Below are positions 10,102 to 25,677 of a stretch of 64,000 nucleotides of DNA, one piece after another. The stretch is taken from the NCBI GenBank assembly GCA_019745565.1, contig JAIESW010000024.1:129-64128 (forward strand), read 5' to 3'. The first letter of the stretch is position 1, and every line of letters starts with the position of its first letter. The DNA comes from Burkholderiales bacterium. GTDB lineage: Bacteria > Pseudomonadota > Gammaproteobacteria > Burkholderiales > Ga0077523. The translations under genes and the position numbers were made by a program. Under the pieces are notes generated by a model. The model made no database searches. It worked only from the letters and a program-made list of their open reading frames with translations, and had not been told where the DNA came from.

Positions 10102-10965
10102 TCAACCCCGGCCTTCGCGCACGAGCCGGAAATCGTAGACGGCTTCGCTGAACGGCCGCTCCGAGGACTGCCCGTCCGGAGTCCGGCCGGCCGGCAGATC
10201 GCGGAATTCGACGACCAGCGAATCCTTCACCCCGAACACGGCGTCCGATTCGAGGTACTTGTCCCCCTTGACGAACAGGTGCGTGATGATGGGTTCGTAC
10301 CCCGGCGCCGACACCTTCGTGTGGACGTGCGCAGGCCGATACGGATGCCGCCCCATGCCGAGCAGCATCTTGCCTACCGGGCCGTCGGTCGGGATCGGGT
10401 AGCTCACCGGCTTGGTGGTGCGAAAGCCGAAGCGGCCCTGTGCATCCGTGGTGAACTTGCCGCGGGCGTACGAGGCGCCGGGACGCTGCACGTCGTAGAA
10501 GCCTTCGGAATCGTTTTGCCACACGTCCAGTTCGGCGCCCTCGATCGGCTTGCCGTCCACGTCGAGCACGCGTCCATGCACGTACGCCGGCATACCCGGC
10601 AGACCCTCGGCGATGTCGGCCCACATCGGCAGTTGCTTCGAGCCGGCCACGTAGAAGGGCCCGAGCACCGTGGTTTCGGTAGCACCGCCGGGCTTGCGAT
10701 GGTTGATCGCGTCCACCAGCATCGAGACGCCGAGCGTGTCGGACAGCAGGATGTACTCCTGGCGCTTGTCGTCGCACTTCTGTCCGGTCGCGGTGAGGAA
10801 CTGGATGCCCGCGAACCACTCGGCCTCGGTCAGTTCGGTCTCACGCACGAACGCATGCAGATGACGGATGAGGCTCGTCATGATCTGCCGGAAGCGCTCG
10901 TCCGCCTGGCCCTCGATGCGGGCGAGGACGGCGTCGGTCAATGTCTGTTCCAGCGAACTGCCCAT
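10102..10965 (-). CDS. hydroxyquinol (1,2,4-benzenetriol) 1,2-dioxygenase, intradiol family
   Basis: 287 aa. Intradiol dioxygenase core (…LGPFY…, …RPAHVHTKV…) with the hydroxyquinol-type N-terminal domain. Clustered with maleylacetate reductase. Confidence 0.8.
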   Translation of the reverse strand: MGSSLEQTLTDAVLARIEGQADERFRQIMTSLIRHLHAFVRETELTEAEWFAGIQFLTATGQKCDDKRQEYILLSDTLGVSMLVDAINHRKPGGATETTVLGPFYVAGSKQLPMWADIAEGLPGMPAYVHGRVLDVDGKPIEGAELDVWQNDSEGFYDVQRPGASYARGKFTTDAQGRFGFRTTKPVSYPIPTDGPVGKMLLGMGRHPYRPAHVHTKVSAPGYEPIITHLFVKGDKYLESDAVFGVKDSLVVEFRDLPAGRTPDGQSSERPFSEAVYDFRLVREGRG

Positions 10966-10996: not shown

Positions 10997-11377
10997 CTAC
11001 TTCAACGATTCGAGGTAGCGGATCAGCTTCGCGCGGACCCGCTCCTCGTCCTGGAAGTAGACCATCTGTGCCTTCGGGGCCACGGCGAGCGTGTCGGTGA
11101 GCCACTGGTCGAGCAGTTCCACGGTCCACGTCTTGCCCTTCAGCGCTTCCTTGATGCCGTCGGAGAACACGAATCCGTCCACGGCTGCGGCGGGGCGGCC
11201 GATCAACCCGAACAGGTTCGGACCCTGCCCGTGCTTCTCGCCCTTCTCGAACGTGTGGCACTGGCTGCACTGGCGGATGACCAGTTCCTTCGCGGCCGCC
11301 AGATCATCGGCGGCGAGCGCGGGCGCACTGCAGAAGGCGGCCGCGATCAGGCCGCCCGTGATGAGGTTCGACTTCAT
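10997..11377 (-). CDS. monohaem class I c-type cytochrome (periplasmic)
   Basis: 126 aa. Signal peptide MKSNLITGGLIAAAFCSAPALA, haem motif CSQCH, distal Met (AQMVYF). The track ORF to 12745 is an artefact. Confidence 0.85.
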   Translation of the reverse strand: MKSNLITGGLIAAAFCSAPALAADDLAAAKELVIRQCSQCHTFEKGEKHGQGPNLFGLIGRPAAAVDGFVFSDGIKEALKGKTWTVELLDQWLTDTLAVAPKAQMVYFQDEERVRAKLIRYLESLK

Positions 11378-11442
11378 GACGTTTCTCTCCACATCCTGAT
11401 GGGGTGAAGGGACCGGCCGGGTCCGGCCGGTCCCGATCGACA

Positions 11443-13173
11443 TCAACCGCGCACCGGTTCCTTGTTCGCGGCATTGGCGGCGCGATACGCGAAGCCGATG
11501 ATCGGCCCGAGCGTGCCGCCGCCGGCCCAGTAGGCACGGCCGGACGCCGACGCGACGCAGTTGCCGACGCCGTACAGGCCGGGGATCGGCTTGTCCTCGA
11601 TGTCGAGCACCTGCCCCTCCGGATTGGTCTTCGGCCCGCCCTTGGTGTCGAGCGTGCCGCCGGTCACGAAGGCCGCGTAGTACGGCCCCTTGTCGCTGAG
11701 GGGCCACATGGTGGGGTTCTTCCGGTTCGGCTCCTCCTTCACGTTGCCGTTGAACAGCAGATCCACGCCGCGCTCGCCGCGATGGAAGTCGAGATCCTTG
11801 CCGTTGGCGGCGAACTCGTTGAAGCGCTTGATGGTGGCCTTGAGGTTCTGCACATAGTCGGCGGAGATGCGCATGCCGCCGTTGTGGCTCGCGTACTTCT
11901 GCAGACGTGCATCGATGTTCGCCGCCAGCTCCTCGAGTGTCGCGCCCTTGATGACGTGACGGTCGTCGGAGCCCGGCGGCACGATCAGGCGGCCGTACTC
12001 GTGACTCGCGGAATGGTCCTGGGCGCGCTGATCCCAGATGGAGGTGAGGATGAGATAGGGGAACTGGGCGTTGGCCCCGTCCCACTCGAAGAACTTCTGC
12101 GCGAGCTCGTTGTAGTGCAGCTTCTCGTTCACCACGCGCTTGCCGTTCTTGTCGACGAAGATCATCGAGTCGCCGGCCACCGAGAAGCAGCCGATCATCG
12201 ACGGATCCTTGGCGATCGCCTTCTCGAACGAGATGGGACACATCCAGGCGTAGTTCATGTTGCGCAGCTGCACGCCGAGCGTGCTGGAGATGCGGATGAA
12301 GTCGCCCTCGTTCGTCATGGCCGCGCAGCCGCCGTAGGCCGGGATGGACAGGAAGTTCTTGCGCAGCTCGGGATCGTGGGTGAAGCCGCCGGTGGCGAAG
12401 ATCACGGCCTTGCGCGCCTTCACGCGCAGCACGCCGTCGTCGTTCTTCACCTCTACGCCGATCACTTCGCGCTTGTCGTTGAGAATGACCTTCTGCACCC
12501 GATGGCTGGTGCGCACCGTGACCCCGTCGCGGCGGCACGCCGTGGACAGCGTGCGCGTCGCCACCTGACCGCCGTCGGACATCGAGGGTGCTCCGTCTTT
12601 GGGGAACAGCACGCGCCCGGTGGCACCGATAGTCTCCATCTCCGCGAAGTAGTCCGGCACCGGGGCCACGTGGCGGTAGGGCAGCGCGCCCTTCTCGGAC
12701 AGCAGCTCGGTGCCTACCGAAGAGCTGTCGTAGATCGCCTCGCACATGGCGTACTCCCAGTCGGAAAGACCGAGCTTGGGAGCGTTCGGATCGAAGCTCT
12801 GGGGCTGGGACAGCCGTGCGACGTAGCGGAGGAAGTGCTCCTTGGAGTCGGGGATGCCCGCCTTCTGCATCGCGGCATTGTTCGGGACCCAGTACCAGTA
12901 TGCGGCCTTGAACGACGTGCCGCCCAGCGTCGCGGCCTTCTCGTACACCGCGACCTTGTTCCCGAGCCAGCGCGAGAACAGCGCCACCGGCAGTCCTGCA
13001 CCGCCGCCGCCGCAGACGACGATGTCGAACTCCTGATCGAAGGTCGCGGCCAGCGCTTCCTTCGCACTCAGCGTAACCGTGCCGAACGTGGCTGCCGCAG
13101 TCCCCGCGGTCGCCGCCTTCAGAAAACCGCGTCTTGCCTTGTCTGCCTGCTGCTCGATCTCCTTGCCGGACAT
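11443..13173 (-). CDS. Tat-exported FAD-dependent oxidoreductase (FAD_binding_2 / flavocytochrome-c flavin-subunit / KstD-like family)
   Basis: Twin-arginine signal KARRGFLKAATAGTAAATFG and dinucleotide fold DIVVCGGGGAGL. 576 aa. C-terminal GLYGVGNC typical of the succinate dehydrogenase/fumarate reductase flavoprotein superfamily. Confidence 0.8.
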   Translation of the reverse strand: MSGKEIEQQADKARRGFLKAATAGTAAATFGTVTLSAKEALAATFDQEFDIVVCGGGGAGLPVALFSRWLGNKVAVYEKAATLGGTSFKAAYWYWVPNNAAMQKAGIPDSKEHFLRYVARLSQPQSFDPNAPKLGLSDWEYAMCEAIYDSSSVGTELLSEKGALPYRHVAPVPDYFAEMETIGATGRVLFPKDGAPSMSDGGQVATRTLSTACRRDGVTVRTSHRVQKVILNDKREVIGVEVKNDDGVLRVKARKAVIFATGGFTHDPELRKNFLSIPAYGGCAAMTNEGDFIRISSTLGVQLRNMNYAWMCPISFEKAIAKDPSMIGCFSVAGDSMIFVDKNGKRVVNEKLHYNELAQKFFEWDGANAQFPYLILTSIWDQRAQDHSASHEYGRLIVPPGSDDRHVIKGATLEELAANIDARLQKYASHNGGMRISADYVQNLKATIKRFNEFAANGKDLDFHRGERGVDLLFNGNVKEEPNRKNPTMWPLSDKGPYYAAFVTGGTLDTKGGPKTNPEGQVLDIEDKPIPGLYGVGNCVASASGRAYWAGGGTLGPIIGFAYRAANAANKEPVRG

Positions 13174-13267: not shown

Positions 13268-14470
13268 TCAAACGCGCTCCAGCACCGCCGCGATGCCCTG
13301 GCCGACGCCGATGCACATGGTCGTCAGCGCATAGCGCAGCTTGCGGTGCTGCAGTTCGTGGGTGGCGGTCGCGACCAGGCGTGCGCCGCTCATGCCGAGC
13401 GGGTGGCCCAGGGCGATGGCCCCGCCGTTGGGATTCACGCGCGGGTCGTCATCCGCGATGCCGAGTTGCCGCAGCACCGCGAGACCCTGTGCCGCGAAGG
13501 CTTCGTTCAACTCGATCACGTCGAGCTGTTCCTGCTTGAGCCCGAGGCGCGCGAACAGCTTCTGCGAGGCCGGCACCGGCCCGATGCCCATGATGCGCGG
13601 TGCGCAGCCGGCGGTGGCGACGCCGACCACGCGAGCGAGCGGTGTGAGGCCGTGCTTCTTCGCCGCGGCCTCGCTGGCGAGGATCAGGGCGCAGGCGCCG
13701 TCGTTTACACCCGAGGCGTTGCCTGCGGTCACGGTGCCGTCCGGTTTCACGATCGGCTTCAGCTTCGCGAGTGCTTCCATGGAGGTTTCGCGCGGGTGCT
13801 CGTCCTGGCTCACGACCACCGGATCACCCTTCTTCGCCGGGATGGTCACCGGCACGATCTCCTGCGCCAGCCGGCCGTTCTTCTGGGCGGCGGACGCGCG
13901 GGCCTGGGAACGCAATCCGAACGCATCCTGGTCGGCGCGCGATACCCCGAAGTCGGCCGCGACGTTCTCCGCGGTTTCGGGCATCGAATCGACCCCGTAC
14001 ATCTGCTTCATCGTCGGATTGACGAAACGCCAGCCGATGGTGGTGTCGTACACCGCGGTGGTGCGCGAGAAGGCGTTGTCCGCCTTCGGCATGACGAAGG
14101 GGGCGCGCGACATGCTCTCGACGCCGCCGGCGATGATCAGCTCGGCTTCGCCTGCCTTGATCGCGCGTGCAGCGATACCTACCGCATCCATGCCCGACCC
14201 GCACAAGCGATTGATGGTGCTGGCCGGAATCTCCTTCGGCAGTCCGGCCAGCAGCAGCGCCATGCGCGCCACATTGCGGTTGTCCTCGCCGGCTTGGTTG
14301 GCGCACCCGAACACCACATCGTCCACGGCGCTCCAGTCGACGTTGCCGTAGCGCTCCATCAACGCCTTGAGCGGAACCGCACCGAGGTCATCCGGGCGCA
14401 CCGACGAGAGCGAGCCGCCGTAACGGCCGATGGGGGTGCGCACTGCAGCGCAGATGAAGGCTTCCGGCAT
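13268..14470 (-). CDS. pcaF: 3-oxoadipyl-CoA thiolase / acetyl-CoA C-acyltransferase
   Basis: 400 aa. Thiolase motifs (…[12 protein letters not shown]…, C-terminal …CIGVGQGIA…) and a PcaF/PaaJ-like N-terminus [19 protein letters not shown]. Sits in the 3-oxoadipate gene context. Confidence 0.8.
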
Positions 14471-14473
14471 GGT

Positions 14474-15496
14474 TCAGTCCTTGGGTGGTTCACGCAGCAC
14501 CAGGCGGCGCTGCACGGGGAAGAAATGGAGGTCGAAGCGGTGGGATACGTAGCCCCACAGCCCGCGCGGAAAGCGGATCGTGACGACGATGGCGAGCAGG
14601 CCCAAGCCCACGAGGTACCAGGTGCCGTACTCGGAGAAATACTTGTTGAGCAGCCAGAACAGCACGACGCCGACGATGGGCCCCTCGATCGTGCCGATGC
14701 CGCCGATCATCACGATGAAGATGGTGAAGGCGGTCCAGTTCACGGTGAACGCCGCGTCCGGCGAGATGCGCAGGTTGCCGAGGAAGTAGAGCGCGCCCGC
14801 GAGCCCGGCGCCGAAGGCGGCAACCACGTACACGCCGAGCTTCGTCGCGCGCACGTTGACCCCCTGGCTTTCGGAGGCGATCTCGCTGTCGCGGATGGCG
14901 AGCAGCGCGAGGCCCTGGCGCGAACGCAGGAACCAGTAGACCAGGGCCACCGACGCCACCGCCGAGATGAGACACAACCAGAACGTGACCGACACGCGCG
15001 TGGCCTTTTCGATACCACGCAGCGCCGTGAGGCTGGTGCCGGAACCGCCGCCCACCGCGGAGACGTTGGCGATGGACAGGCGGAACACCTCCGCGATCAC
15101 CCAGGTGCCGATGGCGAAGTAGCCGCCCTGCAGCCGGAAGGCGATCTTCGAGACCGGAATGGCCACCAACATCGTGAGCACCGCCGCGATCGGTACCGCG
15201 ACGAACGGATTCACGCCCATGAAGTTGCCCATCACCACCAGTGCGTAGCCGCCGAGGCCCAGAAACGCCTGCTGGCCGATGGACACCATGCCGCCGTAGC
15301 CGGCCAAGAGGTTCCACATCATGGCGAAGATGAGATAGCAGGCCATCTCGTTGAACTCGCGCATCCAGCCGTGATCGGCCCACCAGGGAAAGGTGGCGAG
15401 GAAGACGACGAACACCGCGGCCAACGCACCGCCCGTGCGGCTCGCACGCGTGGCGCGCGAGACCTCGAAGGCGATGGCGGGTGCGTTCGTGGTCAT
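14474..15496 (-). CDS. HAAT ABC transporter permease, LivM-like (second system)
   Basis: Starts MTTNAPAIAF. The ATG overlaps the upstream stop (ATGA). Multi-TM, with NLLAGYGGMVSIGQQAFLGLGGYA. Confidence 0.88.
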   Translation of the reverse strand: MTTNAPAIAFEVSRATRASRTGGALAAVFVVFLATFPWWADHGWMREFNEMACYLIFAMMWNLLAGYGGMVSIGQQAFLGLGGYALVVMGNFMGVNPFVAVPIAAVLTMLVAIPVSKIAFRLQGGYFAIGTWVIAEVFRLSIANVSAVGGGSGTSLTALRGIEKATRVSVTFWLCLISAVASVALVYWFLRSRQGLALLAIRDSEIASESQGVNVRATKLGVYVVAAFGAGLAGALYFLGNLRISPDAAFTVNWTAFTIFIVMIGGIGTIEGPIVGVVLFWLLNKYFSEYGTWYLVGLGLLAIVVTIRFPRGLWGYVSHRFDLHFFPVQRRLVLREPPKD

Positions 15497-16371
15497 CGCG
15501 TCTTCGGGAACAGGCCCGAGGGTCGGAACAGCAGCATCGCGAGGAACACCACATGGCCCGCCCAGATGCCCCAGCCCGGGTCGATGCGGAAGCCGATCGC
15601 CTGGGTGACGCCGAGTATCACGCCGCCGGCGAAGGTGCCGTAGAACGAACCCATGCCGCCGATGATCACGGCCTCGAACGCGTACAACAGGAGTGCCGGG
15701 CCGTCGGAAGGCGAAACCGTCGTCTTCATGCCGTGCAGCGTTCCCGCGATCGCCACGAGCGCAAAGGCAATCCCCGTGGCGAGCGCGTAGACGTGTCGAT
15801 GATCGAGGCCCATCAGCTCGGCGGCATCGCGATCGTCGCTGACCGCACGAAAGGCACGACCCAATGCCGTGCGGCCGAACAGCCATTGCATGGCGACCGC
15901 CATGACCACGGCGACGCCGAAGATGAGCAGGGGCAGCGTGCCGACCGCGAGTCCGCCGCCGATCTCGACGCTCGCGATGTTGAGTCCGCCCGAGTCGATG
16001 GAGCGTGGGTCGGCGCTGTAGACCTCCTGCAGGACGTTCTGGATGACGATCGCGAGGCCGAAGGTGACGACGAGCGAGGGCAGCGGATCCTTGCCGAGCG
16101 TGCCGTTGAGCACGAAGCGCTGGAGGCCGTAGCCGGCGGCGAAGGCGATCGGGAGCAGGACGCCCATGGCGATCCACGGCGCAGCGGCCGGCGGAAGTCC
16201 GAGCGCGAGGGCCAGGGAGAAGGCACCGAAGGCAGCGAGGATGATGAAGTCGCCGTGCGCGGTGTTGGTGAGGCGCATGACGCCGAAGATGAGCGATTGA
16301 CCCATGGCGAAGAGCGCGTACAACCCGCCGAGGAGGACGCCTTGGACGATGGTGTCGAGCCACGCGGTCAT
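15493..16371 (-). CDS. HAAT ABC transporter permease, LivH-like (second system)
   Basis: 292-aa hydrophobic ORF (…GGLYALFAMGQSLIFGVMRLTNTAHGDF…). Confidence 0.88.
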   Translation of the reverse strand: MTAWLDTIVQGVLLGGLYALFAMGQSLIFGVMRLTNTAHGDFIILAAFGAFSLALALGLPPAAAPWIAMGVLLPIAFAAGYGLQRFVLNGTLGKDPLPSLVVTFGLAIVIQNVLQEVYSADPRSIDSGGLNIASVEIGGGLAVGTLPLLIFGVAVVMAVAMQWLFGRTALGRAFRAVSDDRDAAELMGLDHRHVYALATGIAFALVAIAGTLHGMKTTVSPSDGPALLLYAFEAVIIGGMGSFYGTFAGGVILGVTQAIGFRIDPGWGIWAGHVVFLAMLLFRPSGLFPKTR

Positions 16372-16529
16372 GCGAGGACCTTGTTACCTATGCCGCGCGA
16401 GACACATCCCAAAGGAAAGCGCTCAACGCGGCGGAATGCCAAGGCGAAAGCCTCGTGCTTGGGCCAACGGTGGCTGGTCTCGCAGTGCGGGGGTTCCGCC
16501 GCGTTCTGTGTCTTCAGCTTGTCCATGGC

Positions 16530-17234
16530 CTACACCCCGAAGTAAGCCTGCGAGATCTGCTCGCGACTCAAGGCTTGCGAGGAACCCGACAGAGTCACCC
16601 GCCCCTCCTGCAGGCAGTACAACCGGTTCGACACCCGCTGCGCCACGCTCACGTCCTGTTCCACGATGATCACGGTCAAGCCTCCCGAGCACACCGCCGG
16701 CAGCGTGTCGTAGATCTCCTTCACCACGATCGGTGCGAGGCCCAGCGAGATCTCGTCGCAGATGAGCAGCTTCGGGTTGCTCATCAGTGCACGCCCGATC
16801 GCCACCATCTGCTGTTGTCCACCGGACAACGCCGTGCCGGGATTGCGCCGCTTCTCCTTGAGGATGGGGAACAGCCCGAACACGGTCTCGAGGTTCCACG
16901 GCCCGGTGCGCTTGGCATACGCACCCATCAGCAGGTTCTCTTCCACGCTCAGGCTCGGGAACAGACGGCGGCCTTCCGGCACCAGCGCCACGCCGCGCTG
17001 CACGATCCTGCCTGCGGGCAGGCCGCCGATCGCTTCGCCTTCGAACATCACGGCATCGCGCTTCGCCTTCAGCAGGCCGGCCACGGTCTTGAGGAAGGTG
17101 GACTTGCCGGCACCGTTCGCGCCGATGATCGCAACGATCTCGCCCTGGGCGATCTCGAAGTCGACGCCGAACAGCGCCTGGAAGTCTCCGTAGAAGCTTT
17201 CCAGGCCCCGGGTGGCCAGCAGCGGAGCGGTCAT
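16530..17234 (-). CDS. HAAT ABC transporter ATP-binding protein, LivF-like
   Basis: 234 aa. Walker A GANGAGKST, signature LSGGQQQM, Walker B LLICDE. Confidence 0.9.
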   Translation of the reverse strand: MTAPLLATRGLESFYGDFQALFGVDFEIAQGEIVAIIGANGAGKSTFLKTVAGLLKAKRDAVMFEGEAIGGLPAGRIVQRGVALVPEGRRLFPSLSVEENLLMGAYAKRTGPWNLETVFGLFPILKEKRRNPGTALSGGQQQMVAIGRALMSNPKLLICDEISLGLAPIVVKEIYDTLPAVCSGGLTVIIVEQDVSVAQRVSNRLYCLQEGRVTLSGSSQALSREQISQAYFGV

Positions 17235-17953
17235 GCTTCCAGACCCATGTAGACGCGCCGCACTTCGGCGTCATTCATCACGGCTTCCGGTTCCCCTTCC
17301 GCAAGCTTCTGGCCGAAATTGATGACGAACAACCGGTCCGCGACTGCGAGCAGCGCGTGCACCACGTGCTCGATCCAGACCATCGTGACGCCCTGGGCCT
17401 TGATGCGATGGATCTCCTCCACCAGTTCCTTCGCTTCGTGCTCGGTCAGGCCGCCGGCGATCTCGTCGAGCAGTAGAACCTTGGGGCTGGTCGAGAGCGC
17501 GCGCGCCAGTTCGAGGCGCTTGCGGTCCAGCAACGTGAGGCTGCCGGCGAGACGGTTCGCCTTCGACAGCAGTCCGGTCTCGCGCAGGATCTCGACGGCG
17601 CGATCGTAGGTGTCCTTCTCGGGTCGCTGCGACCCGAAGGACGCGGCGGCCACCAGGTTCTCGAACACCGTCATCGCGCCGAAAGGCTGCGGGATCTGGT
17701 ACGAGCGGCCGATGCCGAGGCGGCAGCGGCGGTGCGGCGGCTCGCGGCTCACGTCACGACCGTCGAACGATACGCGGCCGGCGTCGGTGCGCACATCACC
17801 GCTGATCAGGTTGAACAGCGTCGTCTTGCCGGCGCCGTTGGGACCGAGGATGCCGAGCGTCTCGCCGTGGTCGACCGCCAACGTGATGTTGTCGGTGACC
17901 TTGAGTGCGCCGAAGCTCTTGCTCACGCTGTCGAGCGCGAGTATCGCGGACAT
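17231..17953 (-). CDS. HAAT ABC transporter ATP-binding protein, LivG-like
   Basis: Starts MSAILALDSVSKSFG. Walker A GPNGAGKTT, Walker B LLLDEIAGG. 4-nt overlap with livF-like. Confidence 0.88.
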   Translation of the reverse strand: MSAILALDSVSKSFGALKVTDNITLAVDHGETLGILGPNGAGKTTLFNLISGDVRTDAGRVSFDGRDVSREPPHRRCRLGIGRSYQIPQPFGAMTVFENLVAAASFGSQRPEKDTYDRAVEILRETGLLSKANRLAGSLTLLDRKRLELARALSTSPKVLLLDEIAGGLTEHEAKELVEEIHRIKAQGVTMVWIEHVVHALLAVADRLFVINFGQKLAEGEPEAVMNDAEVRRVYMGLEA

Positions 17954-18014
17954 CCGGGTCTCCTGGATCGTTGTGGCGCGGAGCGAGTCGTTCGCCCTCC
18001 GCCGATCTCTCGGG

Positions 18015-18050
18015 GGCCTGCGCGCGGGATCTGAGCCCGCGGCGCAGGCC
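18015..18050 (-). other. intercistronic GC-rich hairpin after the binding-protein gene
   Basis: GGCCTGCGCGCGGG-ATCTGAG-CCCGCGGCGCAGGCC (14 bp, one bulge), located between the SBP stop and the livG-like start. No U-tract. Confidence 0.5.
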
Positions 18051-18057
18051 GCTGCCG

Positions 18058-19338
18058 TTACATCAGCTTCATCTTCCCGCCTGCCGGAATGGCCGGTGCC
18101 TGGGAGTTGTTGACGATCACAAGGTCGTACTTGTTCTTCGTCCCCTTGACCCACTGCCCCAGCACGAGCGGCGTCTTGCTCACGTTCTTGAACGGGCCCC
18201 CGCCGCCCCACTTCACGTCGCCGACTACGGTCTTCAGGTTGGTCGCGGCGACTGCGTCGCGCAGCGACGCGGCATCACCGGGATCCTTGGCGCGCTTCAA
18301 TGCGTCCACGGCTACCTCGAACAGCGCGTGCGCGAACCCGATCGGCTGGGTCCACTGCTTCTTGGTCGCGCCTTCATAGGAATCGGCGAGTGCCTTCGCA
18401 CTTTGCTTCGTGAGCGAAGAGGTGAACGGATGCGACGGTGACCACCATACTTCCGTGGTGAGTCCGTCGCCGAGATCGCCGAGTGCCTCGATGGCGGCGG
18501 GGAACAGCAGCGCCTTGCCGAGCGTCACCACCTTGGGCTTGAAGCCCTGCTGCTTCGCCTGGGTGAGGAAGGTCTTCGCATCCGGCGGGATCACGACGCC
18601 TGTGACGATCTCGACGTTGTCCTTCTTGAACGCCGCGATCTGCGCGGAGAAGTCGTTGTTCATGTTCTGGAAGCGGCCCGGGTCGGTGAGGCTGTAGCCC
18701 TCCTTCGACAGCGGTCCGGGGAAGCCGCGCTCCTTGTCGCCCCACGCGTTGCCGTCGCCGTCGTTGGGGAACAGGCCGCCCACTTTCTTGTTGGTCGGCA
18801 CCGAGTTCCAGCCGGCGAGGAAGTTGGCGATGACGTCCTCGAGACCCCAGAAGATGTGATAGGTCCAGGTGAAGCCCTTGGCCGGATCGCCCTTGCGGCC
18901 GAAGAACCACGGCTGCCACGGCACGACGGTGGAGATGCACGGGATCTCGTTCAGTTCGCACGCGTCCGACACCGGGTTCGCGGTTTCGGGCGTGGACGAG
19001 ACCAGCATCAGGTGGACCTTGTCCTTGAGGATGAGGTCGTTCGCCACTTCGCCGGCGCGGTTCGGGTTGGACTGGCTGTCCTTCTGGATGATCCTGACCG
19101 GTACCCTCTTGCCGCCGAGATCGAGGCCGCCGCCGAACAGCTTGTTCATCTGTTCGATCGTGAACTTGTCGGCTTCGCCGAAGGGTGCGAGCGGGCCGGT
19201 CTGCGGCGACACGAAGCCGATCTTGATCTCCTTCACGTCCGCGAACACGAGGTTCGGCATGCCGAGTGCTGCGGCGCCGGCGGCGATCCCGCCGGCCTGG
19301 ATCAGCGCGCGACGGCGCTGGAAGCTTGGGTTGCTCAT
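18058..19338 (-). CDS. HAAT-family periplasmic substrate-binding protein with twin-arginine-like signal
   Basis: Starts MSNPSFQRRRALIQAGGIAAGAAALGMPNLVFA. LivK-like fold length (about 426 aa). First gene of the transporter block. Confidence 0.85.
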   Translation of the reverse strand: MSNPSFQRRRALIQAGGIAAGAAALGMPNLVFADVKEIKIGFVSPQTGPLAPFGEADKFTIEQMNKLFGGGLDLGGKRVPVRIIQKDSQSNPNRAGEVANDLILKDKVHLMLVSSTPETANPVSDACELNEIPCISTVVPWQPWFFGRKGDPAKGFTWTYHIFWGLEDVIANFLAGWNSVPTNKKVGGLFPNDGDGNAWGDKERGFPGPLSKEGYSLTDPGRFQNMNNDFSAQIAAFKKDNVEIVTGVVIPPDAKTFLTQAKQQGFKPKVVTLGKALLFPAAIEALGDLGDGLTTEVWWSPSHPFTSSLTKQSAKALADSYEGATKKQWTQPIGFAHALFEVAVDALKRAKDPGDAASLRDAVAATNLKTVVGDVKWGGGGPFKNVSKTPLVLGQWVKGTKNKYDLVIVNNSQAPAIPAGGKMKLM

Positions 19339-19407
19339 GTCTGTTGCTCCTCCTTCTGGTTGTGACTGCTCTTGTTGCGGTGACAAGGCTTCTCTCGTTG
19401 CGGCGAG

Positions 19408-20469
19408 TCAGTTCGGACGCTTGCCCTCCCAGGCGTCTTGCAGCAGCTGGCGGATGGCGCCGCGTTCGATCGGGCGCGGATTCCAGTAAACGTTGGTGGT
19501 GGCGAGCTCGGCGGCGCGGTCCAGACCGTCCGCGGGCATGCCGATGTCCTTGAGCGCCGTCGGTGCACCGAGGCGTTGCGCCAGATCGAAGACGCCGCGG
19601 GCCGCGCTCGACTCGTTGCCCATTGCCGCGACGATCCGTGTCATCGCTTCCGAGGCAGCGGGCGCGTTGTAGGCGAGCGCGTGCGGCAGCACGATGGTGT
19701 GGGTTTCGGCATGGGGCAGATTGAAAGTGCCACCCAGCGTGTGACACAGCTTGTGGTGCAGCGACATGCCGACCGACCCCAACACGGCGCCGCACAGCCA
19801 GGCGCCGTACAGGCAGTGGCTGCGAGCATCGCTATCGCCTGGCGACGCGACGACCCGTGGCAGACCCGTCGCGAGCGCGCGGATGCCTTCCTCAGCGAGC
19901 AGCGAGTGGATCGGGTCCGCATCCTGCGCATAGAGACCTTCGGCGGCGTGGGCGATCGCGTTGATGCCGCTCGTCACGGACAGACCCACCGGGAGTCCGA
20001 GGGTGAGATTCGGGTCGTAGATCACCGTCTGCGGCAGCACACGCGGATCGCGCCCGGTCTTCTTGACCCCGCCTTCGGTGATGCCCCAGATCGGCGTCAT
20101 CTCCGAGCCGGCATAGGTGGTGGGAATGGCGAGAATCGGCAGCGTCGATTCCAGCGCGATCGCCTTGCCCAGGCCCGTGGTGGAGCCGCCGCCGATGGCG
20201 ACGGCGCAATCGGCGCCGACTTTCGTGGCTTCCGCGCGCGCGGCGCGGGCGGTCTCGATCGGCACGTGCATCACGGCGCGGTCGAACACGCCGGCGCAGC
20301 GGGTGCCGAGGCGCTCCGCGATCATCTCCGCGGACACGCGTTGCTCGGGCGTGGAAAGCACCAGCGCGCGCTTGGCACCGAGCAGATCCACCTCGCGCTC
20401 GAGTTGCTGCAGGCAGCCGGCACCGAACACGACGCGCGGGATGCGCGCCTGGAAGACGAAGGGGCTCAC
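19408..20469 (-). CDS. maleylacetate reductase (iron-containing alcohol dehydrogenase family)
   Basis: About 353 aa. Motifs AIGGGSTTGLGKAIA and HKLCHTLGGTFNLPHAETH. GTG start overlaps the pcaJ stop (GTGA). Confidence 0.85.
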   Translation of the reverse strand: MSPFVFQARIPRVVFGAGCLQQLEREVDLLGAKRALVLSTPEQRVSAEMIAERLGTRCAGVFDRAVMHVPIETARAARAEATKVGADCAVAIGGGSTTGLGKAIALESTLPILAIPTTYAGSEMTPIWGITEGGVKKTGRDPRVLPQTVIYDPNLTLGLPVGLSVTSGINAIAHAAEGLYAQDADPIHSLLAEEGIRALATGLPRVVASPGDSDARSHCLYGAWLCGAVLGSVGMSLHHKLCHTLGGTFNLPHAETHTIVLPHALAYNAPAASEAMTRIVAAMGNESSAARGVFDLAQRLGAPTALKDIGMPADGLDRAAELATTNVYWNPRPIERGAIRQLLQDAWEGKRPN

Positions 20470-21122
20470 GCAGGCAGCGCTTCGGAAGCGTGCAGCAGCG
20501 GCACGCCCGTCAGGCGTTGCAATTCGTCGAACGGGAGGCCGTCGACGCACTCCACCACCTTCAGCCCTTGAGGCGTGACGTCGATCACCGCGAGGTCGGT
20601 GTAGATGCGATTGACGCAGCCGATGCCGGTCAGCGGATAGGTGCAGCGCTCGACGATCTTGCTCTCGCCGCTCTTGGTCTGGTGCTCCATCATCACGTAG
20701 ACCTGCTTCGCGCCGATGGCGAGGTCCATCGCGCCGCCGACCGCGGGAATGGCGTCGGGGCCGCCCGTGTGCCAGTTGGCGAGATCGCCGGTCACCGATA
20801 CCTGGAACGCGCCGAGCACGCAGACGTCCAGATGGCCGCCGCGCATCATCGCGAACGAGTCGCCGTGGTGGAAATAGCAGCCGCCGGTGAGCAGCGTGAC
20901 CGGCTGCTTGCCGGCGTTGATGAGATCCGGGTCCTCCTCGCCTTCGGCCGGCGCGGGGCCCATGCCGAGCAGACCGTTTTCGCTGTGCAGGAAGATCTCG
21001 CGATCCTTCGGGAGGTGGTTGGCCACCAGCGTCGGCAGGCCGATGCCGAGATTCACGTAGGCACCTTCGCGGATGTCGCGCGCGACGCGGGCGGCGATCT
21101 GATCACGAGTGAGTCGCTTCAT
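20466..21122 (-). CDS. pcaJ: 3-oxoadipate CoA-transferase subunit B
   Basis: 218 aa. MKRLTRDQIAARVARDI… and SENGLLGMGP with the catalytic Glu motif of family I CoA-transferase beta subunits. Confidence 0.88.
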   Translation of the reverse strand: MKRLTRDQIAARVARDIREGAYVNLGIGLPTLVANHLPKDREIFLHSENGLLGMGPAPAEGEEDPDLINAGKQPVTLLTGGCYFHHGDSFAMMRGGHLDVCVLGAFQVSVTGDLANWHTGGPDAIPAVGGAMDLAIGAKQVYVMMEHQTKSGESKIVERCTYPLTGIGCVNRIYTDLAVIDVTPQGLKVVECVDGLPFDELQRLTGVPLLHASEALPA

Positions 21123-21147
21123 GTCGTTGCTCCTTCTCCGCGGGAAG

Positions 21148-21837
21148 TCACGCGACAGCGCGGGCGCCGGACGGCGCGGCCACCTGCACGACCCGTTGCA
21201 CGAAGATGCCGGGCGTGATCACGGTTTCGGGATCGAGTGCGCCGAGCGGTACCACTTCCGATACCTGCGCGATGGCGCACTTCGCCGCGCTGGCCATGAT
21301 CGGACCGAAGTTGCGCGCGGTCTTGCGATACACGAGGTTGCCCCAGCGATCGCCCTTCAGTGCCTTGATCAGTGCGAAGTCCGCGTGGATCGGGTACTCA
21401 AGCACGTAGGGACGCCCATCGATGATGCGGGTCTCCTTGCCTTCGGCGAGTTGCGTGCCGTAGCCCGTCGGCGTGAAGAACGCGCCGATGCCCGCACCGG
21501 CCGCGCGAATGCGCTCCGCGAGATTGCCCTGCGGTACCAGTTCGAGCTCGATGTCGCCGGCGCGGTAAAGCCCGTCGAAGACCTGCGAGTCCACCTGACG
21601 CGGGAACGAACAGATGATCTTGCGCACCCGGCGCGCCTTGAGCAGTGCCGCGAGGCCGACCTCGCCGTTGCCGGCGTTGTTGTTGACGATGGTGAGGTCC
21701 TTGGCGCCCTGCACGATGAGTGCGTCGATCAGCTCGGCAGGCTGCCCCGCGGCACCGAAGCCGCCGATCATGACGGTGGCGCCGTCGAAGACATCGGCGA
21801 CGGCGGCGTCGAGGGATGGGACGGTTTTGTCGATCAT
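21148..21837 (-). CDS. pcaI: 3-oxoadipate CoA-transferase subunit A
   Basis: Starts MIDKTVPSLDAAVADVFDGATVMIGGFG, the typical alpha-subunit N-terminus. The track ORF extends into a REP element. Confidence 0.88.
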   Translation of the reverse strand: MIDKTVPSLDAAVADVFDGATVMIGGFGAAGQPAELIDALIVQGAKDLTIVNNNAGNGEVGLAALLKARRVRKIICSFPRQVDSQVFDGLYRAGDIELELVPQGNLAERIRAAGAGIGAFFTPTGYGTQLAEGKETRIIDGRPYVLEYPIHADFALIKALKGDRWGNLVYRKTARNFGPIMASAAKCAIAQVSEVVPLGALDPETVITPGIFVQRVVQVAAPSGARAVA

Positions 21838-21874
21838 GGGTGCGAGAGTCCTGTTTGTCTTGCCGGGCCGCGTT

Positions 21875-21964
21875 GCCCCCACCCTAGCCCTCCCCCGGCA
21901 GAGCCGGGGGAGGGGATGTACGCCCCTTCCCCCACCGCAGGTGGGGGAAGGTTGGGATGGGGGC
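21875..21964. repeat. REP-like nested palindromic element, copy 4 (inverted orientation)
   Basis: Its reverse complement is near-identical to copy 2. Sits between the ALDH stop and the pcaI start. Confidence 0.9.
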
Positions 21965-21979: not shown

Positions 21980-23449
21980 TCATCGCGGGTAGTAAGGCGG
22001 AATCTGCGCATCCACATTCACCCAGACGCTCTTCGCCTGGGTGTACTCCCGCATCACTTCGAACCCCATCTCCCGCCCGTATCCGGAACTCCCGGTCCCG
22101 CCGAACGGTGACGCAGGGTTCACCCGCTTGTAGCAGTTGATCCACACCATCCCGCTTTTCATCTCTCTCGCGAACTTGTGCGCACGCTGCAGGTTCGTCG
22201 TCCACAACCCGCCGCCCAGCCCATACTCGGTGCCGTTCGCGATGGCCAGCGCTTCCTCGTCGGTCTTGAACGTCGTGACGGTCACGAACGGCCCGAACAC
22301 TTCCTCCTGCGACACGCGATCGGTCGGCTTCGCGCGCACGATGGTCGGTTCGACGTAGCAGCCTTTCGACAGCTCGGCGCGCGCGGGCGGCTTGCCGCCG
22401 AGCAGCACCTGCCCGCCCTGCTCCTGCGCCACCTGTACGTATGACAGCACGCGATCGCGATGCCCGGTCGACGTGAGCGGACCCATCTCGGTGCCCGGCT
22501 CCACCGGATTGCCGAGCTTGATGGACTTCGCCAGCCCGATGAACTTCTCCAGGAACTCATCGGCGATTTTCTCGTGCAGCACCAGGCGCGAGCCGGCGAT
22601 GCAAGCCTGGCCCTGGTTGTGGAAGATCGCGAAGGCGGCACCGCCGACCGCAGCAGGAATGAACGCATCCTCGAACACGATGTTCGCACCCTTGCCGCCC
22701 AACTCGAGTTGCACCTTCTTCAGGTTGCCGGCCGAGGCCTGCACGATGCGCCTACCCACGGCAGTGGAGCCGGTGAACGCGATCTTGGCGATCTCGGGAT
22801 GCTCGGCGATGTATTGGCCCGCGACTTGACCGAGTCCCGGCACGATGTTGACCACGCCCTCGGGAAAGCCCACTTCCGCCATCAGCTGCGCGATCTTGAG
22901 ACTGGACAGCGGCGTGAGCTCCGCCGGCTTCATCACCACGCAGTTGCCGGCCGCGAGCGCCGGAGCCATCTTCCAGCTCGTGAACATGAGCGGAAAATTC
23001 CACGGCACCACCTGCCCCACCACGCCGAGCGGCTCGCGCAGCATGTAGTTGAGGAAGCCCGCTTCCACCGGAATCACGGAACCTTCCAGCTTGTCGGCCA
23101 TGCCGCCGAAATAGCGGAACGTCACCGCGGTCCGCGGCACGTCGAGGCCGCGGGTATCGCGCAGCGGGTGGCCGGTGTCGAGCGATTCGAGCAGCGCCAG
23201 TTCCTCGGCCTTCTCCTCGATCCTGTCGGCGAGCTTGAGGATGAGCCGGCCGCGATCCATCGCCGCCATGCGGCTCCACTTCGGGAATGCGGCTTTGGCG
23301 GCGGCGACGGCCTTGTCGATGTCGGCCTTGCCCGCCATGGCGACTTCGGCGAGCGTGCTGTTGTCGTGCGGGTTGACCGTCGCGAGCGTCGCACCGTCCT
23401 CGGCGGGAACGAACTTGCCGGCGATGAAGAGCTTGTCCTGGATTTCCAT
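21980..23449 (-). CDS. NAD(P)-dependent aldehyde dehydrogenase, probable 4-hydroxymuconic semialdehyde dehydrogenase
   Basis: 489 aa from MEIQDKLFIAGKFV. ALDH motifs ELGGKG and catalytic Cys region NQGQACIAGSR. Position between the hydroquinone dioxygenase genes and the maleylacetate-processing genes. Confidence 0.8.
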   Translation of the reverse strand: MEIQDKLFIAGKFVPAEDGATLATVNPHDNSTLAEVAMAGKADIDKAVAAAKAAFPKWSRMAAMDRGRLILKLADRIEEKAEELALLESLDTGHPLRDTRGLDVPRTAVTFRYFGGMADKLEGSVIPVEAGFLNYMLREPLGVVGQVVPWNFPLMFTSWKMAPALAAGNCVVMKPAELTPLSSLKIAQLMAEVGFPEGVVNIVPGLGQVAGQYIAEHPEIAKIAFTGSTAVGRRIVQASAGNLKKVQLELGGKGANIVFEDAFIPAAVGGAAFAIFHNQGQACIAGSRLVLHEKIADEFLEKFIGLAKSIKLGNPVEPGTEMGPLTSTGHRDRVLSYVQVAQEQGGQVLLGGKPPARAELSKGCYVEPTIVRAKPTDRVSQEEVFGPFVTVTTFKTDEEALAIANGTEYGLGGGLWTTNLQRAHKFAREMKSGMVWINCYKRVNPASPFGGTGSSGYGREMGFEVMREYTQAKSVWVNVDAQIPPYYPR

Positions 23450-23456
23450 GGTTCGT

Positions 23457-23855
23457 TCAGTCCGCGATGCGCACGCGGCCGTCCTCGATCGTGAGCGGCA
23501 CCGCCAACAGAGAGTCACCCTCGCAGGGACCATCCTCGCAGTAGCCATCTTCGAAGCGGAACGTCGCGCAGTGCACCGAGCAATAGAGGTAGCTGTGCTC
23601 GAACAGCGTGAAGCGATCGGGGGCCACGTTGAGCGGGACGCCGAAGTGCGGGCACTTGTTGAGATAACCCCACACCGCGTCGCCGGAACGCAGCACCACC
23701 AGCCGGAACGTGTCGTGCCCTTCGCCGAAGTTGAACTCGCGCGCGCCGCCGTCCGGCACGTGCTCGAGTGCGCACAACACCGTGCCCGCCGCCGGCGCGA
23801 AGGGGCGCTCGGTCCAGTGCGGCACGGGGTTCGGCAGTTCCATCGGGGCGTTCAT
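23457..23855 (-). CDS. small Rieske [2Fe-2S] domain protein
   Basis: 132 aa. Cluster ligands CPH(F) …21 aa… CSVH. No oxygenase catalytic domain. Confidence 0.8.
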   Translation of the reverse strand: MNAPMELPNPVPHWTERPFAPAAGTVLCALEHVPDGGAREFNFGEGHDTFRLVVLRSGDAVWGYLNKCPHFGVPLNVAPDRFTLFEHSYLYCSVHCATFRFEDGYCEDGPCEGDSLLAVPLTIEDGRVRIAD

Positions 23856-23923: not shown

Positions 23924-24946
23924 CTAGAACTCGACCGGGTAGGGCTTGAGCTTCCCGCTCTCGTAGAGCTGGGGCAGGTCCATCCGCGCGTTCTCCCACA
24001 CCAGCAGCATCGAACGCTTGGTGGCGAAGCCCTGGTGACGGATGTCGGCCGGCATCGCGGCGACGTCGCCGGCTTTCATCAGCACGCGCGCGCGCGGCTT
24101 GCCGGTTTCCTTGTCCGAGACGTCCCACTCGATCTCGTCGGAGAGCTGGATGAACCACTCCACGCGATCGTTGCCGTGGATGATCGGCAGGATGTACTCC
24201 TCGGTGGTCGGACAGTACAGCGATTCGCGGCACACCGAAGTGACCGACGGATTCCACGTGACGTCGGACCGGCTGAGGTACTTGAACAGGTTGAAGCCGT
24301 GCAGCTTGCCTTCGAAGCCGGGCTCGACTTCGATCACCGGTTCGTCCTGAGCCACGTCGGCGAAGGCGCGATTCACCGGGAGATCATCGCGCAGCGGCGA
24401 ATCCCCCGGCAGGCCGGGCATGCGCTTGGTCGCGACGCGCGAGCGCTCGATCGCTTCGAGGTTGTCCCCGCTCTTGGTACCGGCCCACGTCTTGCCGGTC
24501 TCCTCCGGTGCGGCGAACGGATCGAAGCCGGCGTTGCACCAGTCCTTCAGGATCGCCTTGCAGGTCGCCATGGCGATCGGCGAGTCGAACTCCTCGACGT
24601 AGGAAAGACCGGCCTGGTGGTACGCCGGGTTGTAGCGACCGGCGAAGAACTCCACGCGGCCGTACAGGTTGCGGCTGCCGAACATGCCGTCGAAGTTGAC
24701 GAGGCCGTAGAAGAAGCCCCATGCGACGTCGCGCATCAGCGCGCGCAGGAAGGCATCGGCGGACATGCGATGCTGCATCGGCCCCTGCTTCGTGGGCCAG
24801 GTGACGGTGACGAAGTACTCGTCGCGCTGGAAATGGAACTTGCCCAGATCGAACTGGCGGAAGCCGGTCTTCGCATCGGGCTCGCTCGCCTGGACGGCGG
24901 GCTGCGGACGGGCGGCAGGTTTTGCAGCGGTTTCGAGCATGGCCAT
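23924..24946 (-). CDS. hydroquinone 1,2-dioxygenase large subunit (HapD/PnpD-type), putative
   Basis: 340 aa (about 38 kDa), directly after a 164-aa partner. Sizes and gene order match the two-subunit Fe(II) hydroquinone dioxygenases, followed by ALDH and maleylacetate reductase. Identity is recalled, not searched. Confidence 0.65.
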   Translation of the reverse strand: MAMLETAAKPAARPQPAVQASEPDAKTGFRQFDLGKFHFQRDEYFVTVTWPTKQGPMQHRMSADAFLRALMRDVAWGFFYGLVNFDGMFGSRNLYGRVEFFAGRYNPAYHQAGLSYVEEFDSPIAMATCKAILKDWCNAGFDPFAAPEETGKTWAGTKSGDNLEAIERSRVATKRMPGLPGDSPLRDDLPVNRAFADVAQDEPVIEVEPGFEGKLHGFNLFKYLSRSDVTWNPSVTSVCRESLYCPTTEEYILPIIHGNDRVEWFIQLSDEIEWDVSDKETGKPRARVLMKAGDVAAMPADIRHQGFATKRSMLLVWENARMDLPQLYESGKLKPYPVEF

Positions 24947-24961
24947 GGTTGATTGCTCCGA

Positions 24962-25456
24962 TCAGTGCGCGCAGATCTCGGCCCACTTCTGGACCGTGAG
25001 ATCGCCGGCGATGGTCTGCTGGATCATCACCGACGGCCTGGCCGCGGTGAACTGGTAGGCGGCACCCTTGGGCAGCAATGCCTGATGGCCGCGTTTGAGA
25101 TGAATGCGGCCCATCTTGCGACCCGACGGCGCACCGGACAGCTTCACGGTGCCGTCCTTGCCGGCGGGCACTGAAGCATCCGCGAGTTCCACGAAGGACA
25201 CGGTGACCTCGCCGTCCAGCACGACCACGAACTCGTCATGACCGGCCGTGAACCAGTCGGAGGTTCCTTCGGCGCGAATGGTCTCGATCACGTACTCGAA
25301 GTTCTTCGCGACCGCGACCTTCTCCCACGGCTTCGACTTCGAGGCGACCTCGAACACGTTCGAATAGCAGTAGTACTTCGGGTTGTCGTTGATGATGCTC
25401 AACTTCCCCTTCTCGAACTGCTTCAGGGACCCGAAGACGGTGGTGTATTGCGACAT
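24962..25456 (-). CDS. hydroquinone 1,2-dioxygenase small subunit (HapC/PnpC-type), putative
   Basis: 164 aa from MSQYTTVFGSLKQFEKGK. First gene after the divergent IclR promoter region. Track ORF trimmed. Confidence 0.6.
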   Translation of the reverse strand: MSQYTTVFGSLKQFEKGKLSIINDNPKYYCYSNVFEVASKSKPWEKVAVAKNFEYVIETIRAEGTSDWFTAGHDEFVVVLDGEVTVSFVELADASVPAGKDGTVKLSGAPSGRKMGRIHLKRGHQALLPKGAAYQFTAARPSVMIQQTIAGDLTVQKWAEICAH

Positions 25457-25571
25457 GCTGGCGTTTCCTCCCCATCGATCCCGGACTCGTACGCCCGGGG
25501 CGTTTTCGGTCTGGCCGGCCACCACGCCGACCGCGATCACGGCATCGCCATCGGCCGCGAATTGGTGCAGA

Positions 25572-25677
25572 GTTCGCATTCCGAACGGCTGTTCTTTATT
25601 TGAACGCAGTCTAGGCAGGCGCAAAAATGCCTGTCAAGCTGTTTTTCGATTAGAGAACACATGTTCGTAATTAGAAC
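25572..25677. promoter_or_regulatory. three GTTC-N7-GAAC boxes in the divergent hqd-operon/iclR control region (candidate IclR operators)
   Basis: GTTCGCATTCCGAAC (25572-25586), GTTCTTTATTTGAAC (25591-25605), GTTCGTAATTAGAAC (25663-25677), plus the overlapping GAACACATGTTC (25655-25666). This is the locally most AT-rich stretch of the window. Confidence 0.55.

Follow-up and report, generated by a model that had tools for sequence, protein, structure and literature searches.

A predicted periplasmic flavoprotein of the cyclohexanone dehydrogenase family and its cytochrome c partner beside hydroquinone and hydroxyquinol ring-cleavage genes in a Burkholderiales bacterium

The closest described relative of the flavoprotein reported here is cyclohexanone dehydrogenase (CDH; EC 1.3.99.14) of Alicycliphilus denitrificans K601, deposited in the Protein Data Bank (PDB) as 8AM3, 8AM6, and 8AM8 (Singh et al. 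2024, PMC10966990). In PDB numbering, its catalytic residues are Tyr195, Tyr376, Tyr570, and Gly574; the gate and pocket residues Trp113, Tyr415, Phe496, Leu530, and Phe352 enclose the C6 ring, with three aromatic gate residues closing the pocket of the structure around it; and Cys305 lies 1.84 Å from the C8-methyl of flavin adenine dinucleotide (FAD) in the crystal, with density spanning the gap (PMC10966990). CDH is also suspected of desaturating its substrate twice, as a doubly unsaturated product was suspected from 4,4-dimethylcyclohexanone and the formation of phenol by tautomerisation has been discussed (PMC10966990). In published work on CDH, the expressed protein still carried its leader, and the acceptor was an artificial dye, DCPIP. 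In Alicycliphilus the enzyme is paired with the molybdoenzyme MhyADH in the anaerobic degradation of cyclohexanol, whereas the pair described here, a 576-residue flavoprotein and a monohaem cytochrome c encoded on a 64,000-nucleotide stretch of a Burkholderiales genome (contig JAIESW010000024.1; the whole stretch is referred to as the window), lies in a hydroquinone/hydroxyquinol cluster. We give a probability of roughly 60% to the reading that these two proteins form a periplasmic flavocytochrome whose substrate is a small ketone with a six-membered ring, which it desaturates to supply the upper step that this cluster is missing.

Systems in which a covalent-FAD dehydrogenase hands its electrons to a separately encoded c-type cytochrome are well known from the periplasm, as in p-cresol methylhydroxylase (PCMH; PchF/PchC) and flavocytochrome c sulfide dehydrogenase (FccB/FccA), and PCMH is the upper step of an aromatic pathway. 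The working logic of both would be that of the window pair, but their flavoprotein folds (vanillyl-alcohol oxidase [VAO] type and disulfide-reductase type, respectively) are unrelated to the one found here. The closest functional precedent for aromatisation via ring desaturation is provided by ChcC1 and ChcC2, KstD-family desaturases that aromatise 4-oxocyclohexanecarboxylate to 4-hydroxybenzoate; the window flavoprotein scores 232 and 164 bits against their models (NCBIfam NF053676 and NF053677), the cut-offs of which are 1000 and 900, and is thus not a member of either family.

As the GC content of the window is 64-68%, genes were chosen by third-position GC together with homology. The open reading frame (ORF) of the flavoprotein begins with ATG behind the ribosome-binding site GGGGAGAGG and has a third-position GC of 0.90, and residues 50-555 of its product match Pfam FAD_binding_2 (E=1.5e-50). 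When the PDB was searched, residues 12-575 aligned with CDH at E=2.9e-262, and the two proteins are 65-67% identical over their full length. The PDB numbering of CDH runs 19 ahead of the native numbering owing to a His tag; taking this into account, Y175, Y354, Y548, and G552 of the flavoprotein correspond to the four catalytic residues of CDH, W93, Y393, F474, L508, and F330 to the five gate and pocket residues, and C283 to Cys305, each in the order given above. All of these residues are identical in the two proteins and invariant in 81/81 sequences of the family. Because the match to the solved enzyme is full length and the catalytic, pocket, and flavin-link residues are all identical, we assign the flavoprotein to the CDH family as a predicted KstD-type α,β-desaturase whose pocket has the dimensions of one C6 ring.

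Many homologues are labelled 3-ketosteroid Δ1-dehydrogenase (KstD) by JGI automatic annotation, and the best NCBIfam match of the flavoprotein is indeed a KstD model, PRK12844, yet it scores 248 bits against a cut-off of 789, with PRK07843 (206 versus 788) and PRK12845 (164 versus 793) also far below theirs. Solved ketosteroid dehydrogenases come next after CDH in the PDB search, at only E=1e-37 to 1e-42; the three aromatic gate residues that close the C6 pocket in CDH are all conserved in the flavoprotein; and the window genes that were scanned include none for steroid catabolism. There is accordingly very little chance that the protein is a KstD, and that assignment was dropped on the strength of the model cut-offs and the active-site residues. 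KstD1 of Rhodococcus erythropolis (4C3X) and AcmB of Sterolibacterium denitrificans (7P18) do share its fold and the proposed mechanism, with a tyrosine base and hydride transfer to FAD, but they are distant relatives at the E values just given, and unlike them the flavoprotein carries a predicted Tat leader and the Cys that probably links FAD, is paired with a cytochrome c of its own, and has a pocket that would fit a single C6 ring rather than a steroid.

After the ketosteroid dehydrogenases, the PDB search returned Fcc3 and urocanate reductase at E values of ~1e-18. The initial annotation had likened the two genes to a split version of the soluble flavocytochrome c reductases and dehydrogenases and had proposed an active-site comparison with Fcc3, UrdA, and KstD. 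The idea of a dedicated two-gene flavocytochrome stood up well (a homologous partner gene follows in 76/80 related loci, as described below), but the likeness to Fcc3 and UrdA holds at the superfamily level only: the flavoprotein scores 141 bits on the flavocytochrome c model TIGR01813, below its cut-off of 285, and its active site is the Tyr/Tyr/Tyr/Gly set that CDH shares with KstD, not that of Fcc3 and UrdA. Membership in the FAD_binding_2 superfamily and a periplasmic site are what these reductases have in common with the flavoprotein. They work reductively and carry a fused tetrahaem or flavin mononucleotide (FMN) domain, whereas no haem motif was found within the flavoprotein and its partner carries a single haem of the mitochondrial class I type. 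An Fcc3/UrdA-type assignment was dropped for the model score and the active-site residues, and it is exceedingly improbable that the pair acts as a reductive flavocytochrome like Fcc3, UrdA, or ArdA on a periplasmic quinone, enoate, or fumarate-like acceptor. Class I monohaem cytochromes of the mitochondrial type are high-potential proteins and poor donors for such reductions; the partner cytochrome therefore fits an electron acceptor rather than a donor.

Residues 13-19 of the flavoprotein read A-R-R-G-F-L-K and are followed by the hydrophobic stretch AATAGTAAATFGTVTL and an ALA cleavage site; the N-terminus as a whole reads MSGKEIEQQADKARRGFLKAATAGTAAATFGTVTLSAKEALA and continues with ATF, cleavage being predicted after residue 42. 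A motif of the S/T-R-R-x-F-L-K type, a hydrophobic stretch, A-x-A, and twin-arginine translocation (Tat) machinery in the source genome (TatC, 234.6 bits) were all found, in agreement with the initial annotation, which had described a 576-residue flavoprotein with a Tat signal and the FAD_binding_2 fold. The flavoprotein is thus a predicted Tat substrate that would be exported to the periplasm. A. denitrificans CDH carries the same motif (SRRGFL), and ~60 residues of each 598-residue CDH chain are disordered in the crystals (PMC10966990); we infer that these would match a 20-residue tag plus a leader of ~41 residues. A text search of the CDH and MhyADH papers gave no mention of a signal peptide, the periplasm, a twin-arginine motif, or a cytochrome, and the literature searched held no paper that connects CDH with hydroquinone genes, with a cytochrome, or with a periplasmic location.

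Between the stop codon of the flavoprotein gene and the start of the cytochrome gene lie 65 nucleotides (11442..11378), with a GGAGAG ribosome-binding site before the latter, so that the Sec-type monohaem CSQCH cytochrome was placed correctly, at exactly this distance, from the outset. The cytochrome has weak Pfam cytochrome c matches, and its PDB matches are mitochondrial and c2-type class I cytochromes c (E=1.6e-17). It has the single N-terminal CxxCH, the predicted distal Met ligand, and the signal peptide of a class I c-type cytochrome, and CcmE is present in the genome; on the CycA c-550 equivalog model it scores 44.5 bits versus 240 and is not a member. The source genome also carries four genes of the COX1 family (haem-copper oxidase subunit I). 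The gap itself contains a stem-loop, and one of different sequence was found at the same position in relatives L001, L002, L003, L007, L008, and L013; its structure is thus conserved among close relatives and may govern how much flavoprotein is made relative to cytochrome. In more distant clades, a 4-nucleotide overlap of the two genes takes the place of this gap. Elsewhere the source genome encodes another cytochrome c that shares 51% identity with the partner, at G000:C79:84007-84282, where it is cut by the contig end (L090), with CoA-transferase-like and amidohydrolase-like genes upstream of it.

To see how widely the pairing extends, 80 related loci were taken from species-representative genomes. 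A homologous cytochrome c gene stands directly 3' of the flavoprotein gene in 75/80, or in 76/80 if one counts L030 (Variovorax robiniae), where the partner gene (L030:11650-12030) is frameshifted through either a sequencing error or recent inactivation. All 74 downstream cytochrome ORFs that could be called by a scan contain C..CH, and the cytochrome starts between -35 and +185 nucleotides from the flavoprotein stop, with the 4-nucleotide overlap in 31 loci. The four loci without a cytochrome (L053, L059, L074, and L075) belong to genomes of Actinomycetota and Verrucomicrobiota. The RR.F motif (R14, R15, and F17 in the window protein) is found in each homologue paired with a cytochrome, and neither this motif nor a leader was found in the flavoproteins of L053, L059, L074, and L075, the last of which could be read only from a tblastn match starting at residue 45. 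As motif and cytochrome gene are absent from the same four loci, the Tat signal and the cytochrome partner are gained or lost together. Cytochrome identity also follows flavoprotein identity (Pearson r=0.93, n=75), although the loci are related and this is not a strict test. Because a homologous cytochrome lies directly downstream in 76/80 loci, the adjacency is not due to chance, and judging from these sequences the two proteins appear to be dedicated partners that function together. That the flavoprotein is an exported CDH-type desaturase with the cytochrome c as its acceptor is, in our view, highly likely.

Alicycliphilus fits the same pattern. In addition to the full-length identity, the shared active-site residues, and the RRGFL motif, a 130-residue CAQCH cytochrome c is encoded 235 nucleotides 3' of A. 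denitrificans CDH (L081:11976-12368, CP002657) and is 49% identical to the window cytochrome; it is without Pfam annotation in one assembly, and only fragments of it are called in another.

The pair is embedded between the thiolase and hydroxyquinol dioxygenase genes of a ring-cleavage cluster, as the initial annotation had stated, and both of these neighbours are supported by database matches (Table 1). On the minus strand the order is hydroquinone dioxygenase small and large subunits, aldehyde dehydrogenase, PcaI/PcaJ, maleylacetate reductase, importer, PcaF, flavoprotein, cytochrome, hydroxyquinol dioxygenase, 2-hydroxyacid dehydrogenase, and PanE-like reductase, and an IclR regulator gene (25715-26536) is divergent from the cluster. 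The hydroquinone dioxygenase genes (23924..25624) also gave a match to Pfam PnpCD_PnpD_N. The gene context expected of a hapCDEFGHI/pnpCDEFG-type pathway, namely a two-subunit hydroquinone dioxygenase, a semialdehyde dehydrogenase, maleylacetate reductase, and hydroxyquinol dioxygenase, is present in the window. The sole minus-strand sigma-70-like site within 8000-26000 (25637-25608) falls at the start of the hydroquinone dioxygenase genes; the same interval showed no terminator-like sites between genes, a picture that fits one long operon under the divergent IclR regulator.

Table 1. Features of the flavoprotein-cytochrome pair and of the surrounding ring-cleavage cluster (positions are those of the window; residue numbers are those of the respective protein).
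Feature	Position	Strand	Evidence or remark
Flavoprotein, predicted CDH-family KstD-type ring-ketone α,β-desaturase	11443..13173	minus	576 residues; FAD_binding_2 and PDB matches
Predicted Tat leader, flavoprotein residues 1-42	13048..13173	minus	ARRGFLK, hydrophobic stretch, and A-L-A, read from sequence
FAD dinucleotide-binding motif DIVVCGGGGAGL, flavoprotein residues 50-61	12991..13026	minus	read from sequence
Cys283 codon, equivalent of CDH Cys305	12325..12327	minus	likely covalent flavin link; invariant 81/81
GC stem-loop of 11 bp without T tail, just past flavoprotein stop	11409..11434	minus	minimum free energy -31.1 kcal/mol, z=-2.6; unique in window
Class I monohaem cytochrome c, proposed electron acceptor	10997..11377	minus	126 residues; PDB match E=1.6e-17
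Predicted Sec-type signal peptide MKSNLITGGLIAAAFCSAPALA, cytochrome residues 1-22, A-L-A cleavage site	11312..11377	minus	read from sequence
Haem motif CSQCH, cytochrome residues 37-41	11255..11269	minus	one motif only
Met105 codon, predicted sixth haem ligand	11063..11065	minus	aligned to axial Met of mitochondrial cytochrome c
Putative hydroquinone dioxygenase, small subunit	24962-25624	minus	assigned by position and homologues in relatives
Hydroquinone 1,2-dioxygenase, large subunit	23924-24946	minus	PDB 4ZXA E=2.1e-160
Aldehyde dehydrogenase, 4-hydroxymuconic-semialdehyde type	21980..23548	minus	Pfam Aldedh E=4e-175; with hydroquinone dioxygenase in relatives
PcaI/PcaJ-type 3-oxoadipate CoA-transferase subunits	20466..21882	minus	Pfam CoA_trans
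Maleylacetate reductase	19408..20550	minus	PDB 3HL0 E=2.8e-124, also 3W5S
Five-gene Liv-type ATP-binding cassette (ABC) importer (binding protein, two ATPases, two permeases)	14490..19386	minus	NCBIfam matches
3-Oxoadipyl-CoA thiolase PcaF	13268..14470	minus	TIGR02430, 713 bits versus cut-off 597
Hydroxyquinol 1,2-dioxygenase (intradiol)	10102..10965	minus	PDB 3N9T PnpC E=2.5e-92; 1TMX E=1.3e-81
2-Hydroxyacid dehydrogenase and PanE/ApbA-like reductase	8082-10066	minus	joined by TTGA start/stop overlap

Neither in the cluster nor in the ten neighbouring genes scanned (306-1382; 26.7-41.8 kb) was another hydroquinone-forming enzyme or an aromatic hydroxylase found; what was found instead includes a short-chain dehydrogenase/reductase (SDR), an aldo-keto reductase, and a major facilitator superfamily (MFS) transporter. 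The Liv-type importer is kept beside the pathway genes in the window's clade, in the Variovorax clade, and in P. putida PSE9, and its binding protein has no solved relative in the PDB at E<=1e-5, so that no clue to its ligand was obtained. The 2-hydroxyacid dehydrogenase and the PanE-like gene are outside the conserved module and recur only in the closest relatives; a PanE-like gene follows the hydroxyquinol dioxygenase gene in L001, L002, and L008, with other DNA between, and the 2-hydroxyacid dehydrogenase occurs in L008.

The gene-neighbourhood survey that had been suggested for flavoprotein, cytochrome, and hydroxyquinol dioxygenase shows a conserved association. In ~45/80 loci, hydroquinone dioxygenase, aldehyde dehydrogenase, maleylacetate reductase, and intradiol (hydroxyquinol) dioxygenase genes lie within 10 kb of the pair, and ring-cleavage genes adjoin it in Variovorax, Caballeronia, Pseudomonas, Pseudoduganella, and uncultured Burkholderiales, their arrangement taking at least five different forms. 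The window's clade has the order PcaF, desaturase, cytochrome, intradiol dioxygenase; in Variovorax and Piscinibacter the pair is flanked by the genes for the large dioxygenase subunit and for the aldehyde dehydrogenase; in Caballeronia it is upstream of the dioxygenase, as it is in Pseudomonas with a LysR gene between; and Pseudoduganella has a further, separate order. The variable neighbours annotated in the Pseudomonas and Caballeronia loci are unrelated genes. In the family tree, no proteobacterial clade is without this ring-cleavage context. The neighbours of the pair in Marinobacter and Methylibium are an FAD aromatic-ring hydroxylase, a two-domain extradiol (glyoxalase-type) dioxygenase, and an FAA-family hydrolase, which is again a context of aromatic ring cleavage. 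These two loci (L024:6127-18553 of Marinobacter lipolyticus and L022 of Methylibium) also hold a BNR / RND / DUF1302 / DUF1329 uptake set.

At the level of whole genomes, a sample of 401 from the order contained the enzyme in 11 and the large hydroquinone dioxygenase subunit in 22. The dioxygenase was found in 9/11 of the genomes with the enzyme versus 13/390 of those without, and the two enzyme-bearing genomes that have no dioxygenase are split into 530 and 680 contigs. Kinship among the genomes means that they do not count as independent in such a comparison, but the matches span five families. For most of the family, then, the pair does not occur in unrelated contexts without aromatic genes, the observation that was initially named as one that would speak against the proposal. 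We consider it probable that the desaturase feeds this ring-cleavage pathway.

A different possibility is that the enzyme does the same job as in Alicycliphilus, as part of a cyclohexanol/cyclohexanone pathway in which it turns cyclohexanone into 2-cyclohexenone (and this into phenol), and that nothing functional follows from its lying among hydroquinone genes. The catalytic and pocket residues are, after all, every one of them identical to those of the cyclohexanone-active enzyme, and the source genome has a 61% identical homologue of the alpha/beta-hydrolase encoded beside the Alicycliphilus cyclohexanol genes (G000:C89:22491-23390), which is unlinked to the desaturase. However, there is no close MhyADH in the source genome, the best matches being 37% identical CO-dehydrogenase-like paralogues on another contig, and MhyADH was found at 0/80 of the loci; the synteny with hydroquinone genes recurs both in at least five orders and at the genome level; and in the family tree the Alicycliphilus enzyme stands by itself on a long branch. 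The association with MhyADH is a feature of the Alicycliphilus pathway and not of the CDH family, and a purely Alicycliphilus-type role for the window enzyme is distinctly unlikely.

The composition of the cluster also allows the pair to be read as a periplasmic quinol:cytochrome c oxidoreductase that would form the quinone from hydroxyquinol or from hydroquinone (by way of the keto tautomer of the latter), whether to gain energy, to detoxify, or to convert hydroquinone to hydroxyquinol via hydration of benzoquinone. Both a hydroquinone and a hydroxyquinol dioxygenase are encoded there, and by our own chemical reasoning a desaturation of cyclohex-2-ene-1,4-dione would formally yield benzoquinone. 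General chemistry argues the other way, as hydroquinone is overwhelmingly in the enol form and reduces cytochrome c non-enzymatically; in addition, oxidation outside the cell would squander what the next enzyme is to use as its substrate, and the closest characterised chemistry is the desaturation of saturated ketones. We regard this role as very unlikely.

The reading that we favour, a periplasmic desaturation feeding the ring-cleavage pathway, retains one part of the initial annotation, which had envisaged a periplasmic redox step before uptake that could account for the missing upper pathway. Such a step is the best-supported explanation and would supply what is missing, but the particular reactions put forward at that time, oxidation of a side chain and reduction of a quinone or enoate, found no support; since the closest relative is CDH and the active sites are identical, the reaction is expected to be an oxidative α,β-desaturation of a small ring ketone.

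By close homology and conservation, the flavoprotein would fold with its FAD in the cytoplasm and then be exported by Tat. If it works like CDH, the tyrosine base Y354, together with Y175, would take the α-proton while Y548 and the backbone of G552 stabilise the enolate, and the β-hydride would pass to the FAD, probably linked to Cys283. The Sec-exported cytochrome c would re-oxidise the flavin, as the conservation of the pair suggests, and electrons would continue to the respiratory chain and terminal oxidases. From gene context, the outcome could be the aromatisation of an alicyclic ketone: most simply, a single desaturation of cyclohexane-1,4-dione would give hydroquinone in its keto form, cyclohex-2-ene-1,4-dione, or 4-hydroxycyclohexanone would be desaturated twice to a product that tautomerises to hydroquinone; cyclohexane-1,3-dione might alternatively lead by way of resorcinol to hydroxyquinol. 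The adjacent ABC transporter may import the product, after which hydroquinone dioxygenase would cleave it, or hydroxyquinol dioxygenase would cleave a hydroxylated analogue.

Several points weigh against this scheme. The identity of the substrate is read purely from gene context and is its weakest link; a 1,4-dioxygenated cyclohexanone is a candidate that we hold to be rather doubtful. The pocket does not differ in any residue from that of the cyclohexanone-specific enzyme, and the sequence gives no sign of a 4-oxygenated substrate, and we found no literature on the catabolism of cyclohexane-1,4-dione or 4-hydroxycyclohexanone, for which no natural source is established. The transfer of electrons from flavoprotein to cytochrome is deduced from synteny. 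At ~20/80 loci, the core module is present with no ring-cleavage genes within 10 kb and with unrelated surroundings. Finally, most relatives carry two further genes, for an outer-membrane channel and an NTF2-like protein, and the source genome is without both, so that the version in the window may differ.

The first of these genes encodes a Phenol_MetA_deg outer-membrane channel and lies directly 5' of the desaturase gene in 32 loci (e.g., L037:9020-9970); one is also found near Alicycliphilus CDH (L081:17135-18025). The second encodes a cytoplasmic SnoaL/NTF2-like protein of 145 residues and stands directly after the cytochrome gene in 46 loci and directly after the flavoprotein gene in 3/4 of the loci that have no cytochrome. 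Across phyla, its product is 65-100% identical to the Caballeronia and Variovorax copies used as queries; examples within L021-L080 are L037:12136-12570 and L026:12083-12559. A sequence search of the PDB with the NTF2-like protein returned nothing, and comparison of its predicted structure (predicted local distance difference test [pLDDT] score 81.8) with the PDB returned limonene epoxide hydrolase, PhzA/B, ketosteroid isomerase, and polyketide cyclases. As modelled, the fold appears generic, and no specific reaction can be assigned to it; in the relatives that have it, the protein would fit a tautomerase. Both genes occur in relatives outside the window's own clade, and neither was found in the window or in the whole source genome.

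Taken across the family, these observations invite a broader proposal, which we put forward tentatively and at somewhat less than even odds: the main natural role of CDH-family enzymes may be to feed the hydroquinone pathway through an undescribed 'alicyclic aromatase' in the periplasm, made up of an outer-membrane channel that would let in a small ring ketone, a Tat-exported desaturase that would aromatise it and pass electrons to respiration through its cytochrome c, cytoplasmic NTF2-like tautomerisation (in most lineages), and a hapCDEFG-type pathway. The Alicycliphilus cyclohexanol pathway would then be a derived offshoot, and the cytochrome c would be the physiological acceptor that has been missing from CDH biocatalysis.

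Relative to the literature searched, the predicted periplasmic location of the CDH family, its dedicated cytochrome c, and its predominant association with hydroquinone and hydroxyquinol genes appear to be new. The pair is a candidate for the missing hydroquinone-forming step of a type of cluster that is common to Variovorax, Caballeronia, Pseudomonas, and many uncultured soil Burkholderiales. CDH is being engineered for green α,β-desaturation, and the sequences point to a periplasmic CDH whose acceptor would be the cytochrome c encoded next to it. The module is present in culturable strains (Variovorax paradoxus, Pseudomonas umsongensis DSM 16611, and Caballeronia strains), which makes growth tests, knock-outs, and assays straightforward. 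If the proposal is true, it would represent a new kind of entry to ring cleavage, in which alicyclic ketones are aromatised rather than phenols oxygenated.

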